In this document: positions 36,529 to 40,051 of the stretch, in pieces
Layout: each line of letters starts with the position of its first letter
How positions within the stretch are numbered: position 1 is the first letter of the stretch
Assembly: GCA_964418495.1 (NCBI GenBank)
Contig: CAYQLQ010000001.1
Span: 1 to 40,051, forward strand
Source of the DNA: Candidatus Woesearchaeota archaeon
GTDB taxonomy: Archaea > Nanobdellota > Nanobdellia > Pacearchaeales > GW2011-AR1
Direction of reading: 5' to 3'
Length of the DNA: 40,051 nucleotides
The notes under the pieces: generated by a model
Told to the model about the DNA's origin: nothing
Database searches by the model: none
The model's input: the letters and a program-made list of their open reading frames with translations, nothing else
Position numbers and translations under genes: made by a program

Positions 36529-36774
36529 ATGCCGGGATTGGATAGAACAGGACCTTTAGGAAGAGGGGCTTTGACAGGGCGAGGTTGTGGACCTTGCGGA
36601 GCTGGTCTTCGAAGAGGATTTGGTTTTCGTAGAGGATTTGGTTTCAGAGCAGCTGTTCCGCAGGAAGTTTCTTTGACTTCAGAAGATGAGAAGAAAATTC
36701 TTGAAGTGGAGCTTGCTGAGATTGAAGCTGAAAAATCTGAGATTGCGAAAAGGTTAAAAGAACTGAAGAAGTAA
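36529..36774 (+). CDS. DUF5320-like small protein
   Basis: It has MPGLDRTGPLGRGALTGRGCGPCGAG, RGFGF repeats and a C-terminal coiled coil. GGAG at 36517..36520 lies 8 nt before the ATG, one of the few SD-like leaders in the window. Confidence 0.6.
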   Translation: MPGLDRTGPLGRGALTGRGCGPCGAGLRRGFGFRRGFGFRAAVPQEVSLTSEDEKKILEVELAEIEAEKSEIAKRLKELKK

Positions 36775-36781
36775 GAGAAAG

Positions 36782-37798
36782 ATGAATTCGAAAATTTTTG
36801 TTTCCATACTTGCAGTATTTGTTAATTTATTTCTTGCAGTTGGGAAACTTTTCATCGGATTTATCTCCAAGTCAGGTGCGATTTTTGCAGATGGAATTAA
36901 TTCTGCAACAGATGTTTTCTCGTCGCTGGTTGGATTTGTTGGGTTGAAGGTGGCGGAAAAACCTGCAGATAAGGAGCATCCTTATGGACACGGGCGTGCA
37001 GAAGTTATTTCGGGATTTGTGATTACTCTTATTATTTTTGTTTCTGGAATTTTTATTATTTTTGAAGCGATTCAGGAATTTTTCAATCCTTCTCTTCTCG
37101 CGTTGACGACGATTTCGTTTTTGGTGATGGGAATTTCAGCGGGAATTAATGGGGGGATGTCTTGGATAAAAGTTCATTTTGGTAAAAAGTATAATTCTGT
37201 TAGTTTGATTTCTGATGGGATTCATTCGCGGATTGATTTGTTTGTTTCGCTTGCGATTTTTGTTGGTTTGTTTTTTACAAAATATTATTCTCGGTTGGAT
37301 ACAATTCTTGCACTTTTTGTGGGGTTGTATATTCTTAGAGAATCTTGGATACTGGGGCGGGAGATGATTCATAATCTTATGGGGGGTTCGGCAGGAGAAG
37401 AAGTTGAGGCGAAGATTCGTGAGGTTTTGAAGAAGCGCGGAGTTGTTTTGAATTCTTTGAAAACACAGAAGTTGGGAGATAAGGATTTTGCAGAATTAAA
37501 TATTAGTTTGCCTTCGAGGTTGAAGGTTGAGAAAGCAGAGGAATTTGTGAAGAGCCTTGAGAAAAGTTTGTCTGACAGCGTCGCTGGTTTGGAATATCTC
37601 TCGATTCAGATTTCGTCGCACGATGTTGGAACGGGTTATCATCGTTTAGGAAATTTTGATGGTTTTGGAGGAGGGCCTGGAGGTTATTGTGTTTGTCCGA
37701 AGGGGGATTATAAAATAAAACATGAAAGAGGAAAGCCGTGTTCAAGTTTGAAATGTCCGACGCATAAAGTAAATTTGGTGAGGGAAAAAGATGAGTGA
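36782..37798 (+). CDS. Cation diffusion facilitator (CDF) metal efflux protein with an added Gly-rich Cys/His-knuckle tail
   Basis: It has 6 TM segments, ADGINSATD and [10 protein letters not shown], and a cytoplasmic alpha/beta domain. The extra tail is [34 protein letters not shown]. Confidence 0.85.
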   Translation: [338 protein letters not shown]

Positions 37799-38063
37799 AA
37801 ATGTCGGAGAATTGGTTTTGAAAAGAAGAGCGGCCAAAAAACTTTTTGGGATTGAAAAGGGGGATACAACAGAATTAATAGTGCAAATAAAAAGAATTTA
37901 TCGGCAACTTGCTATCCAACACCATCCTGATAGAAACCCAATTAATCCTGAAGAAGCAACAAGAACTATGGCAAGAATAAATGAGGCATATGAAATACTC
38001 TCAATTCCAGAATCAGGGGGAGAAAAACATATAAGAAGATTTTATGAGGATTTTATAATATAA
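37791..38063 (+). CDS. Stand-alone J-domain protein (90 aa)
   Basis: IKRIYRQLAIQHHPDRNP carries the HPD motif, and MARINEAYEILS is also present. It overlaps the CDF gene by 8 nt. Confidence 0.75.
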   Translation: MSENVGELVLKRRAAKKLFGIEKGDTTELIVQIKRIYRQLAIQHHPDRNPINPEEATRTMARINEAYEILSIPESGGEKHIRRFYEDFII

Positions 38064-38064
38064 A

Positions 38065-38550
38065 ATGGCAAGACCAAGAAGAATAAGAAGAATTTATTTT
38101 CAACCAGATGTGACTTATTTCAAGCCGGTAGGGATTCCGATGATTAATTTAAAGGAAGTTATATTGAACTTTGATGAATTAGAAGTAATTAGGTTAATAG
38201 ATTTTGAAGGAATGGGGCAAACTAATGCTGGAAAAAAGATGAAGATAAGTCAATCGACATTATCAAGATTGCTTAGAACTGGAAGAAAAAAATTAGCTAA
38301 TGCTATTATCAATGGTCAAGCAATTAAAATTCAAGGAGGTAAATTTAAAATGGCTATTTCAAAAGGAAGAGGTTTAGGTATGGGAAGAAGCAGAGGGTTT
38401 GATGGAGGGGGAAGAATGGGAGGATTTGCAGCAGGACCAGGAGGACTTTGTAAATGCCCCAAATGTGGTTATGAAGAACCGCAAATCAGAGGTCAACCCT
38501 GTATGAATAAAAAATGCCCTAAATGTCAGACTCAAATGATAAGAGGATAA
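38065..38550 (+). CDS. DUF134 (UPF0251) predicted DNA-binding protein fused to a Gly-rich Cys-knuckle tail
   Basis: The motifs are PRRIRRIYFQP...FKP.GIP...ELEVIRLIDFEGMGQTNAGKKMKISQSTLSRLL (HTH). The tail is GPGGLCKCPKCGYEEPQIRGQPCMNKKCPKC. Confidence 0.65.
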   Translation: MARPRRIRRIYFQPDVTYFKPVGIPMINLKEVILNFDELEVIRLIDFEGMGQTNAGKKMKISQSTLSRLLRTGRKKLANAIINGQAIKIQGGKFKMAISKGRGLGMGRSRGFDGGGRMGGFAAGPGGLCKCPKCGYEEPQIRGQPCMNKKCPKCQTQMIRG

Positions 38551-38565
38551 TAAAGGGAAAATAAA

Positions 38566-39375
38566 ATGAAAATTAAGAATATTATTATTTTACCAGGATA
38601 CAATAAGAGAAAAGAGAAAGAAAGTAAGAAGAAAATAGAAATTCTCGAAGGGCAAAAAATAGGAATAGTTGGGCATACAGGTTCAGGAAAAAGTCAATTG
38701 CTTTATGATATTGAAAAATTAGCTTATGGAGAAACAAAAACTAAAAGAAAGATTCTTATTAATGGAAAAAAACCAGATAAAAATTTGAAAACAGACCCAA
38801 CTATTAAAATAATTGGTTATTTAACTCAGCATATGAATTTTATGACAGATACAAGTGTTTATGATTTTTTAAAAACACATATAATAACAAGAGGAAAACA
38901 CAATACAAAAGAAGAAACAGAAAAAATTATAGAAAAAGTAATAAATGAAGCTAATAAAATAACTGGAGAAGAAATAAAAAAAGAAACTAATTTGCTTATT
39001 TTATCTGGAGGGCAATCAAGAGCCTTAATGGTCGCAGATTTGGCATATATAAGTGAATCTCCAATAATACTGATTGATGAAATAGAAAATGCAGGAATAA
39101 AAATAAAACAGGCTCTTAATATTCTTATTAAAAAAGGCAAGATAATATTTTTAGTTACTCATGACCCTCTTCTTGCTTTAGATACTGATAAAAGATTTGT
39201 TATGAAAAATGGTGGAATAAGCAAAGTAATTCATACTTCAATAAAAGAAAAAGGAATTGCGAATTATCTTTCATGGATAAATGATTATATCTTAGAGATA
39301 AGAGAAGAAATAAGGGAAGGTGAAAAAATAAACAAATTAAAATTAATCTGTACCCCGATGGGAGAAGAAAAATGA
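38566..39375 (+). CDS. Soluble ABC-type ATPase with no fused or adjacent permease in the window
   Basis: The motifs are Walker A GHTGSGKS, signature LSGGQS, Walker B IILIDE and H-loop VTHD. Confidence 0.8.
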   Translation: MKIKNIIILPGYNKRKEKESKKKIEILEGQKIGIVGHTGSGKSQLLYDIEKLAYGETKTKRKILINGKKPDKNLKTDPTIKIIGYLTQHMNFMTDTSVYDFLKTHIITRGKHNTKEETEKIIEKVINEANKITGEEIKKETNLLILSGGQSRALMVADLAYISESPIILIDEIENAGIKIKQALNILIKKGKIIFLVTHDPLLALDTDKRFVMKNGGISKVIHTSIKEKGIANYLSWINDYILEIREEIREGEKINKLKLICTPMGEEK

Positions 39376-40051
39376 AAATTGTAATTTTTGGAGGGACGCC
39401 CGGGAGCGGAAAAACAAGTATAATTAAATTTATAATTCAAGAATTAAAAGATTTAAAAATTCATTATGTTAAGTTTGATGTTTTAAGCACAGATGACGAT
39501 TTATTAATAAAACAGAAATTTGGGATAAGTACAGAAAATAAAATTTCTGGAGAAGCTTGTCCAGATCATTATGCTGCTTTAGAAATTCCAAAAATAATTG
39601 AAGAACATAAAGATAAAGATTTGATAATTATAGAAACTGCAGGTTTATGCTTAAGATGTTCTCCTTATGTAAATGAAGGATTAGCTGTGAATGTTTTGAA
39701 TATTTTAGCAGGAAAACCCTCTGGTTATGGTCCATTACTTACTGACGCAGATGTGATTGTTGTATCTAAAGGGGATTTAATTTCCCAGGCAGAAAGGGAA
39801 ATATTTAGGAGCAAGATTTTAGAAGTAAATAAAAATGGTTTGATAATTGATGGAAATGGTTTAACTGGAGAAGGAGCAATTGATGTAGCTGAGAGAATAA
39901 AAGAAATTTCAGAAGTAAAAAAGACTCTTACCTTAAAAAATTCTATGCCTACTGGAATTTGTGGTTATTGTTATGGAAATAAAATATTAGATTCTAAAGA
40001 AACATTAAATAGATATAATCAAGGAAAGGAATTGAAAGCAAGAGTTCCTAA
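39372..40051 (+). CDS. HypB/UreG/CobW-like (G3E-type) P-loop NTPase, 3'-truncated by the window edge. It is not in the ORF track.
   Basis: My hand translation is MKIVIFGGTPGSGKTS...GEACPDHY...IIIETAGLCLRCSPY...VVSKGDL...GLTGEGA...CGYCYG. It shares an ATGA overlap with the ABC gene. The motif order parallels HypB (GSGKT / ENVGNLVCP / NKxD). Confidence 0.55.
   Translation, partial: MKIVIFGGTPGSGKTSIIKFIIQELKDLKIHYVKFDVLSTDDDLLIKQKFGISTENKISGEACPDHYAALEIPKIIEEHKDKDLIIIETAGLCLRCSPYVNEGLAVNVLNILAGKPSGYGPLLTDADVIVVSKGDLISQAEREIFRSKILEVNKNGLIIDGNGLTGEGAIDVAERIKEISEVKKTLTLKNSMPTGICGYCYGNKILDSKETLNRYNQGKELKARVP

Follow-up and report, generated by a model that had tools for sequence, protein, structure and literature searches.

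This study concerns a 40,051-nt stretch of contig CAYQLQ010000001.1 from a Candidatus Woesearchaeota archaeon (the window; positions are numbered along its whole length). From position 36529 to the window end, six genes on the + strand encode a DUF5320 protein, a cation diffusion facilitator (CDF) exporter, a J-domain protein, a DUF134 protein, an ATP-binding cassette (ABC) ATPase and a UreG/HypB-like G3E GTPase. A first-pass annotation had proposed that this cluster is one metal sensing-and-delivery operon. Its six family calls were checked by profile searches judged against the Pfam gathering cut-offs, and all of them exceeded the thresholds. The DUF5320 gene (36529-36774, 81 aa) covers the full PF17253 profile with 51.3 bits (cut-off 27). 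The CDF gene (36782-37798, 338 aa) matches Cation_efflux PF01545 with 148.6 bits (26.6), and the J-domain gene (37791-38063, 90 aa, HPD at residue 45) matches DnaJ PF00226 with 50.7 bits (27.8). The DUF134 gene (38065-38550, 161 aa) scores 94.2 bits against PF02001 (27), the ABC ATPase gene (38566-39375, 269 aa) 55.3 bits against ABC_tran PF00005 (25), and the GTPase gene (39372-40051), which is cut at the window end, 41 bits against cobW/HypB/UreG PF02492 (20.7).

Re-reading the coordinates confirmed the orientation of the six genes and the five junctions first annotated: the DUF5320 and CDF genes are 7 nt apart, CDF and the J gene overlap by 8 nt, 1 nt separates the J gene from DUF134, 15 nt separate DUF134 from the ABC gene, and the ABC and GTPase genes overlap by 4 nt (ATGA). 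Same-strand neighbours in the cluster are separated by a median of 1 nt, compared with 38 nt elsewhere in the window (one-sided Mann-Whitney p = 0.011), and 95% of the window is coding. No + strand terminator-like site was found within the cluster. The window agrees at 99-100% identity with ten sibling contigs that were assembled independently, seven of which span the DUF134/ABC junction; hence, the arrangement is not an assembly chimera. Every one of the 11 sibling contigs retrieved via the J protein stops in or ahead of the GTPase gene, and looking up the exact ABC protein sequence gave no match.

Relatives were collected by scanning one genome per species across 185,579 species. A GTPase relative was present in 278 genomes, and 80 related loci were kept. 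Motif searches of related loci covered 5965 open reading frames (ORFs) and 1.17 Mb of sequence. Promoters were scanned for in metagenomes using the pattern TTTAWAWA-N5-ATGAATANNTATTCAT, which returned at least 120 matches, and 80 of these metagenome loci were examined.

A glutamate dehydrogenase gene (35243-36451) ends 13 nt 5' of an archaeal TATA box, TTTAAATA (36464-36471, + strand), which is preceded by the purine-rich sequence CGAAACA, resembling a B recognition element (BRE). The TATA box and a Shine-Dalgarno-like GGAG (36517-36520, + strand, 8 nt 5' of the ATG) lie where they had been annotated, and GGAG(G)AAAATAAAATG is conserved in relatives. The annotation did not include the 16-bp palindrome ATGAATAtgTATTCAT (ATGAATA-N2-TATTCAT; 36477-36492, + strand), which, as judged from the sequence, is an operator of this operon. 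It lies 5 nt 3' of the TATA box, between this box and the expected transcription start. The palindrome is perfect, and it is the sole match in the window even when up to two mismatches are allowed. A site from just past the TATA box to the start is the classic position of an archaeal repressor. The locus resembles such systems in that the palindrome covers the expected start and a second copy is common beside the BRE, and it differs in its candidate binder, DUF134, which has a helix-turn-helix (HTH) resembling sigma region 4. The second copy, ATGAATAnnnATTCAA, occupies the equivalent site just 5' of the BRE/TATA in many metagenomic homologues; in the window, a weak upstream copy, cTGAATAggTATTCga (36444-36459, + strand), overlaps the stop codon of the glutamate dehydrogenase gene. 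A sigma-70 promoter reading was rejected, given that such sites are no commoner than in shuffles and irrelevant for an archaeon.

The operator tracks DUF134. Exact copies numbered 11 in the 1.17 Mb of related loci and 0 in shuffles. They sit 10-180 nt upstream of DUF5320 (in L002, L011, L020, L028, L040, L080, and L082) or DUF134 (in L073 and L074). Among sites with at most one mismatch, 16/19 were in sources carrying DUF134. Of all families, DUF134 is the one most strongly associated with presence of the operator (odds ratio 15, Fisher p = 1.7e-5, a value that is optimistic because the loci are phylogenetically related). In the metagenome loci, the first gene downstream of the TATA box and operator was DUF5320 in 52/80 and DUF134 in 10/80, and every one of the 23 loci whose downstream sequence reaches at least 3 kb contained DUF134. 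The GTPase was found in none of the 80. The TATA consensus across 71 unique metagenomic promoters was CgAAAcaTTTAaATA, and the shared promoter pattern was CgAAAca-TTTAaATA-gTaTt-ATGAATATATATTCAT-AActaaA. Promoter flanks beyond the motif showed 33% identity, which equals random expectation, so the likeness is confined to the motif. A one-mismatch operator also precedes DUF134 in a contig encoding a bacterial LepA, an argument for joint transfer of the operator and its binding protein.

The leader contains a hairpin, GCTGT-TTT-ACAGC (36504-36516, + strand), directly before the Shine-Dalgarno-like site. Hairpins with differing stems occupy the same position in about one third of 44 unique homologous leaders, and leader folding energy exceeded that of shuffles (Wilcoxon p = 1.3e-5). 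The hairpin was seen in L101, L103, L106, L110, L130, L141, L146, and L171 with a compensatory-like pattern, and short leaders are devoid of it. As to the upstream gene, 5/80 related loci (L055, L059, L063, L066, and L073) have a same-strand glutamate dehydrogenase gene no more than about 2 kb from the ABC/GTPase pair. All five are labelled as candidate phyla radiation (CPR), and in L066 and L073 the gene is directly upstream of the ABC gene.

DUF134 carries a sigma-70 region-4-like HTH at residues 33-80 (38161-38304), followed by an Arg/Gly linker and a six-Cys module. It matched Sigma70_r4 with 25.5 bits (cut-off 24.1) and a sigma factor region 4 in the Protein Data Bank (PDB) at E = 0.009. 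Since DUF134 is present in 23/23 operator loci with sufficient downstream sequence, it is the likely autorepressor of its own operon; it is the sole DNA-binding candidate that is always present with the operator. The consensus of 69 unique DUF5320 homologues comprises an N-terminal MPxxDxTGPxGxGxxTGRGxGxC, an Arg/Gly/Phe-rich segment, and a C-terminal coiled-coil-like helix. DUF5320, CDF, and DUF134 co-occur in several gene orders in archaea and CPR bacteria, and all three are present in 14/80 GTPase loci. The gene orders show DUF5320 followed by DUF134 as the conserved core, with CDF, NifX-like, Zip, MinD-Fer4, and ferredoxin genes as interchangeable cargo. The annotators' statement that DUF134 and DUF5320 often sit near P-loop ATPases in anaerobes was confirmed. 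No functional study of DUF134/UPF0251/PF02001/COG1342, DUF5320/PF17253, or PF04060 was found in the literature.

The CDF exporter scored 213.2 bits against TIGR01297 (cut-off 82.35), and its best PDB match was YiiP/FieF (Shewanella/E. coli YiiP, E = 1e-22). It keeps the loop D/E-H-x-YGHG and the HxxxD of transmembrane helix 5. Site A is formed by N40xxxD44 and H148xxxD152, aligned to YiiP D47/D51 and H155/D159, with Asn as a variant first residue, a trait of Mn-selective CDFs. The ZT_dimer domain (PF16916) scored 23.9 bits, below the cut-off of 26.7. Besides the Asn in site A, the exporter differs from YiiP/FieF in a C-terminal Cys/His module of about 40 aa, which it has in common with the transcription-factor-like DUF134. 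CDF and DUF134 are adjacent within 3 nt in L011, L080, L032, L047, and L048. In L001, two small membrane proteins of about 140 and about 170 aa (8227-9145), which may form a split permease, are encoded between CDF and DUF134; such a pair also occurs in L121 (7565-8514) and is absent from the window. The gap in L121 was considered as a slot for an alternative cassette and rejected, as by eye from the translation it holds a shikimate-dehydrogenase-like gene. In a related archaeon, a free-standing LAGLIDADG homing-endonuclease gene overlaps the CDF 3' end (L002, 7827-8675).

The intact six-Cys/His module lies at the DUF134 C-terminus (38410-38547, + strand) and reads GPGGxCxCPxCG-x5-(H/Q)-x2-G-x-PC-x4-CPxC-x5-R. 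This C-terminus, GPGGLCKCPKCGYEEPQIRGQPCMNKKCPKCQTQMIRG, is homologous to the CDF C-termini of relatives such as L001. In the window, the CDF C-terminus (37673-37795, + strand) retains a degenerate copy, CxCxxG...H...CxxxxCxxH, compared with the intact CDF tails in 13 related loci. In sequence terms, the two Cys tails, whose kinship the annotation had not noted, are one homologous mobile module. It also occurs as a separate 51-75-aa ORF beside CDF/DUF134 in L002, L015, L019, L023, and other loci. The strict six-Cys motif was found 31 times in the 5965 ORFs, always on CDF tails, DUF134 tails, or adjacent mini-ORFs. A 46-aa module query against 1.84 billion representatives retrieved 620 clusters at E <= 1e-3. 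Among the best 150 of the 620, 81 proteins were at most 100 aa long, and fusions were to Nitro_FeMo-Co (16), DUF134 (8), DUF5320 (5), and PDZ (4) domains. In the same 150, C-x-C-x2-C, H, PC-x4-CP-x-C, and R are near-invariant. The module is accessory rather than core because 47/65 operator-linked DUF134 proteins are without it. The view of the DUF134-Cys tail protein as a metal-responsive regulator thus stands in part: a regulator role is likely, as a conserved operator tracks DUF134, but most operator-linked DUF134 proteins have no Cys tail. Tandem arrays of 2-5 copies of the module were seen in long proteins, and copies also occur in phage structural/scaffold-looking proteins (P0241, P0245, P0251, P0261, P0292, and P0326).

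The ABC ATPase is divergent and soluble and has a Walker A motif (GHTGSGKS, residue 36), LSGGQ (146), ILIDE (168), and an H-loop THD (198). No specific ABC subtype could be assigned: a PDB sequence search gave nothing below 1e-10, and Foldseek comparison of the AlphaFold2 model (pLDDT 89) returned generic nucleotide-binding domains only, at about 20% identity. Hundreds of ABC homologues with 57-97% identity occur in Altiarchaeales, Nanoarchaeota, CPR phyla, Dependentiae, and a few other metagenome-assembled genomes (MAGs). In every contig inspected, the ABC gene is followed by a gene for a cobW + PF04060 protein of about 263 aa, usually with a 4-nt overlap; the two genes are read as translationally coupled. 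The window GTPase is cut at residue 226 of about 263 and is 95-96% identical to the full-length L001 and P0121 proteins. Its nearest relatives are in Pacearchaeota and Woesearchaeota MAGs. It contains GTPGSGKT, CPDH, ETAG, CLRC, SKGD, and CGYC motifs. Full-length homologues continue beyond the window into an RnfB-type Fe-S domain (PF04060) with four invariant Cys. This domain is like the N-terminal [4Fe-4S] domain of RnfB and of the corrinoid Fe-S protein (CoFeSP), with the difference that it is fused here to a G3E GTPase. From RnfB and CoFeSP, PF04060 is presumably an entry point for electrons from ferredoxin.

The GTPase model (pLDDT 86) had UreG and HypB as its top Foldseek PDB matches (TM 0.64-0.74 normalised by target length), and by sequence and fold the best PDB matches were 4hi0_E, 2wsm, 5xkt, 2hf8, and 4lps. 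The P-loop, ETAG, and SKGD motifs are held in common, and Cys/His residues occupy the metal-binding positions of HypB (CH) and UreG (CPH). In the alignment, the metal ligands of H. pylori HypB (GEACH, LVC) correspond to the invariant C63-P-D-H66 and C96, which places Cys/His at a predicted HypB/UreG-like metal site. Residues C93, C197, and C200, together with the four PF04060 Cys, are also invariant. The GTPase differs from HypB/UreG in the extra invariant CLRC and CGYC pairs, the C-terminal PF04060 domain, the obligate ABC-ATPase partner, and a distribution centred on DPANN, CPR, and Dependentiae. It scored 44.3 bits against the HypB equivalog TIGR00073 (cut-off 121.2), and no hyp or ure family was among the gene clusters recurring near the pair in the 80 loci. 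A role as Ni/Zn chaperone for hydrogenase or urease was rejected on these two grounds. The annotated resemblance to Ni/Zn metallochaperones therefore holds for the fold, but not for the HypB score or the neighbours, which are ferredoxin, thioredoxin, disulfide reductase, NifX-like, and MinD-type proteins.

The neighbourhood of the pair was examined across the related loci. The ABC gene is directly upstream of the GTPase gene in 76/78 loci, a 2x[4Fe-4S] ferredoxin gene lies at most 500 bp downstream of the pair in 58/80, and a thioredoxin gene is directly upstream in 34/76. Same-strand genes within 10 kb of the pair included MinD-Fer4 in 28 of the 80 loci, NifX-like in 25, DUF134 in 22, DUF5320 in 21, and CDF in 20; the pair is without any CDF in 60/80. 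Unbiased clustering also recovered TrmB/MarR and ArsR regulators, a thioredoxin-fused membrane protein, pyridine-nucleotide disulfide oxidoreductases, and ABC-3 metal permeases. No membrane partner of the ABC protein recurs next to the pair by this clustering of the 80 loci (ABC-3 permeases in 8), and the pair does not look like an ABC transport system with a conserved cognate permease. In relatives, the cassette lies directly after DUF134 or thioredoxin, and in close relatives it continues into two ferredoxins, NifX/IssA-like carriers, and MinD-type Fe-S ATPases. A CsoR-like repressor gene was on the same strand within 10 kb in 12 loci, all bacterial and mostly CPR-labelled. The CsoR-family repressors before the cassette (L007, L008, and 10 other bacterial, mostly CPR-labelled loci) have two Cys and no His at the ligand positions; by eye, they are closer to the CstR (persulfide-sensor) pattern than to the copper-sensing pattern.

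Archaeal and bacterial versions of the pair are 60-70% identical in amino acids. A Methanobacteriaceae version (L084, L086, and L087) is 38% identical, and there the G3E GTPase and a 229-aa PF04060 protein are encoded separately, behind the ABC gene. In L087 (about 8455-12312) it is flanked by genes for ComA (phosphosulfolactate synthase) and a protein with a CofE-like F420-ligase domain, and no clear client enzyme for the pair emerges from the Methanobacteriaceae context. The genomic distribution shows the ABC/GTPase pair as an autonomous, horizontally mobile cassette. It had been proposed that the two NTPases load or unload metal upstream of the exporter; because the cassette is usually found without a CDF, it is unlikely to feed the exporter. 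Its neighbours point to a probable role in Fe-S and thiol-redox chemistry rather than in Ni/Zn delivery.

Composition and nucleotide identity both step at the DUF134/ABC boundary. GC content at third codon positions (GC3) was lowest in the ABC (0.152) and GTPase (0.142) genes, followed by the J gene (0.209) and DUF134 (0.216), whereas all remaining window genes had 0.24-0.53. The sharp GC drop noticed earlier is thus real, also at synonymous sites. By blastn against related loci, the identity was 86-91% for ABC-GTPase (over 38556-40051), 74-77% for DUF134, and 65-68% for CDF; the J gene had no match. High identity to low-GC relatives begins at 38550-38563, and the contigs matching the cassette have an overall GC of 27-31%. 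Because of these two steps, we place a recent recombination or horizontal gene transfer (HGT) junction at this boundary. The annotation had correctly recognised a joined cassette, but the join is here and not at the CDF gene. Relatives have a thioredoxin gene at this point and the window has none. Compared with the sibling contigs, about 20 single-nucleotide polymorphisms (SNPs) lie in 470 bp of the ABC gene (38748-39216, seen against siblings L089, L092, L093, and L096) and 3 in the preceding 3 kb, which suggests that cassette recombination is ongoing within the community.

The J protein has itself as its sole match among 5.8 billion proteins. Its gene has no nucleotide homology to related loci, is absent from the cluster in the 80 related loci, and CDF and DUF134 abut at its site in L011 and L080. 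A tblastn search against all loci found only generic DnaJ matches, far from the cluster. A J domain was on the same strand within 10 kb of the pair in 1/80 loci, 7 kb off. By these comparisons, the J gene is an insertion between CDF and DUF134 unique to this population. Its postulated role as an operon partner was rejected because it has no homologue outside the population and is missing from related clusters. No DnaK gene is present within the 40-kb window. The annotated gene order accordingly recurs in two parts, DUF5320/CDF/DUF134 and the ABC-GTPase pair, but the J gene has no match outside this population and the pair is mostly without CDF. On gene content and composition, the locus is a mosaic of a DUF5320-CDF-DUF134 unit, an orphan J insert, and a recently imported ABC/GTPase cassette. 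Transcription from the upstream promoter probably continues into the cassette, since DUF134 and the ABC gene are 15 nt apart and no terminator intervenes.

The orange protein (ORP) complex of Desulfovibrio offers a comparison. It includes the MinD-type Fe-S ATPases Orp3/Orp4, the NifX-like Mo-Cu protein Orp8, the small Fe-S protein Orp5, the Mrp/NBP35-DiNase Orp9, and the regulator OrpR; its NifX-like and MinD-ferredoxin-type components are experimentally characterised Fe-S proteins, and expression of the complex is restricted to very low redox potential (PMC6345978, PMC8359166). Likewise, the relatives L001, L009, L010, L020, and L080 carry NifX-like and MinD-type ferredoxin-domain ATPases, and small Cys-rich proteins accompany them. 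The ORP system is specific to anaerobes and presumably spread by HGT from archaea. The window differs in stopping before any NifX or MinD gene of that arrangement. Its locus has TATA/BRE, a palindromic operator, and DUF134 and is without an enhancer-binding protein gene, whereas ORP uses sigma-54/OrpR, and CDF, ABC ATPase, and G3E GTPase are not described as ORP components. IssA of Pyrococcus furiosus stores iron-sulfur as thioferrate, and its cationic tails were proposed to wrap the anionic thioferrate (PMC5524996). NifX-like proteins of many related loci bear cationic Gly/Arg-rich C-terminal tails of the IssA/IssX type, and the DUF5320 segment RRGFGFRRGFGFR and the DUF134 linker have the same Arg/Gly-rich chemical character. 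This likeness is one of composition, and the window contains no IssA-type gene.

We consider it slightly better than an even chance that the locus is a composite of an operator/DUF5320/CDF/DUF134 module, a J insert, and an imported cassette, working as follows. A DUF134 dimer would bind the operator via its sigma-region-4-like HTH and repress its own operon. DUF134 would be released or tightened by a thiophilic ligand, in all likelihood iron or an iron-sulfur species, that is read through the six-Cys/His module and/or the partner DUF5320. The module on the cytosolic tail of the CDF would couple export to the same signal, under which the tailed FieF-like Fe/Mn-type exporter would remove excess metal. 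The cassette would be a nucleotide-driven, ferredoxin/thioredoxin-linked device for maturation or repair of metal centres or Fe-S clusters with its own clients; ferredoxin would feed the ABC/GTPase pair through the Fe-S domain, and thioredoxin would assist.

Several observations weigh against this composite reading. With 47/65 operator-linked DUF134 proteins devoid of it, the six-Cys module cannot be a universal sensor, and it could simply bind structural Zn. The window CDF tail has lost 2/6 Cys (CPKGD, CPTHK), identically in the sibling contigs. Another host regulator could bind the operator, and the statistics linking the operator with DUF134 are inflated by relatedness. The identity of the ligand is suggested by neighbourhood and analogy, and co-transcription of the cassette with the DUF5320-CDF-DUF134 unit is read from the 15-nt gap and the missing terminator. 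The literature search found no experiment on DUF134, DUF5320, the six-Cys module, or the ABC/GTPase pair.

A rather unlikely alternative to a sensor is that the six-Cys/His module is a structural zinc ribbon serving as a docking or oligomerisation tag. It would gather DUF134, CDF, NifX-like carriers, and DUF5320 into one assembly, and DUF134 would answer another signal or be a constitutive architectural DNA-binding protein. The weak Pfam zinc-ribbon matches of the module (Zn_Ribbon_1, DNA_ligase_ZBD), its presence in tandem arrays and phage-like proteins, its absence from most DUF134 proteins, and the tolerated loss of two Cys in the window CDF copy fit this explanation. Its six Cys and one His are nearly invariant, however, and outnumber the ligands required by a single Zn ribbon, and every one of its fusion partners handles metal or Fe-S. 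A small multi-Cys protein of the ORP operon, a possible counterpart of the module, reportedly binds [2Fe-2S]. We give low probability to the idea that the neighbours are functionally unrelated, with the packing due to DPANN genome compaction and the cluster an accident of insertion history. Recurrence of DUF5320, CDF, and DUF134 together, the close CDF-DUF134 spacing in five loci, the Cys module common to both proteins, and the placement of the cassette after DUF134/thioredoxin in relatives all speak against it, despite the mosaic locus, the high coding share, and the 38-nt median gap of the window.

The single dedicated operon proposed at first, in which a Ni/Zn-type metallochaperone GTPase and the ABC ATPase would load or unload metal for the CDF, the J protein would assist, and DUF134 would sense, is less likely still. 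The pair is mostly found without CDF, the operator/DUF134 unit is without the pair in 80/80 metagenome loci of at least 120, the J gene is limited to one population, the HypB equivalog score is far under its cut-off, the recurrent neighbours are Fe-S/thiol-redox proteins rather than Ni or Zn enzymes, and the cassette is a recent import. These findings are set against six co-oriented genes packed tighter than the background, the HypB/UreG-like metal ligands of the GTPase, the 14/80 loci with DUF134, DUF5320, and CDF, and some archaeal and CPR loci with CDF, DUF134, and the pair on the same strand. It is highly improbable that the ABC/P-loop pair serves in anti-phage defence or is a selfish mobile element. 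Interdomain spread at 60-70% amino-acid identity, the low-GC import with its SNP hotspot, and weak partial PADLOC matches of the ABC protein to mad3, AriA, and PtuA would suit such a role, but these matches are generic low-scoring P-loop segments, no nuclease, toxin, or integrase recurs, and redox and metal chemistry is favoured by the ten invariant Cys, the Fe-S domain, and the ferredoxin and thioredoxin genes dedicated to the pair.

A broader extension of the composite reading comprises three claims, and their joint truth is tentative and on balance doubtful. DUF5320 and DUF134 would be a widespread, previously unrecognised, autoregulated sensor/repressor pair with ATGAATA-N2-TATTCAT as its operator that governs an iron/Fe-S (thioferrate-like) regulon in DPANN and other anaerobic archaea. 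The six-Cys/His module would be a mobile Fe-S/metal-sensing domain of regulator, exporter, and NifX/IssA-like carriers. The cassette would be a new class of nucleotide-driven machine for ferredoxin-coupled maturation or repair of metal centres, exchanged among DPANN, CPR, and Dependentiae. DUF134, DUF5320, and the NifX-like/MinD-Fe-S neighbourhood are among the commonest uncharacterised gene sets of strict anaerobes, and we found no paper assigning a mechanism to any of them. The 16-bp operator tracking DUF134 across metagenomic contigs, the module of about 40 aa that joins a transcription-factor-like protein, an exporter, and Fe-S carriers, and the invariant ABC-ATPase/Fe-S-GTPase pair are testable handles. 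Conservation of the pair across minimal-genome archaea and bacteria, thought to be host-dependent for most biochemistry, implies an important, readily transferred function. Should the proposed roles hold, they would show how ultra-small anaerobes detect iron and iron-sulfur species and deal with them, and the G3E metallochaperones would gain a fifth functional class.

The remainder of the window includes genes for RadA, Gins51, SRP54, FtsY, aIF2-alpha, a RIO-type kinase, and many secreted Ig-like or beta-helix proteins. This content is archaeal, and together with the nearest GTPase relatives it marks the genome as DPANN-type. The FtsY-like ORF (31452-33827, - strand) has 790 aa, with the SRP54 GTPase domain confined to residues 504-788, so it has either a long N-terminal extension or a GTG start set too far upstream. 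A MinD/ParA/NUBPL-type P-loop ATPase gene (27001-27888, + strand; AAA_31, CbiA, ParA, and Fer4_NifH matches) lies 9 kb upstream of the cluster and is akin to the MinD-type seeds of the ORP-like census. A tRNA at 28943-29061 (- strand, 119 nt, Rfam 53 bits), whose length suggests an intron, overlaps the start of ORF 27938-28972; ARAGORN gave no tRNA in the window. This ORF (- strand, 344 aa, no Pfam match) adjoins the tRNA, has the lowest GC outside the cluster (GC 0.28, GC3 0.24), and may be another imported gene.

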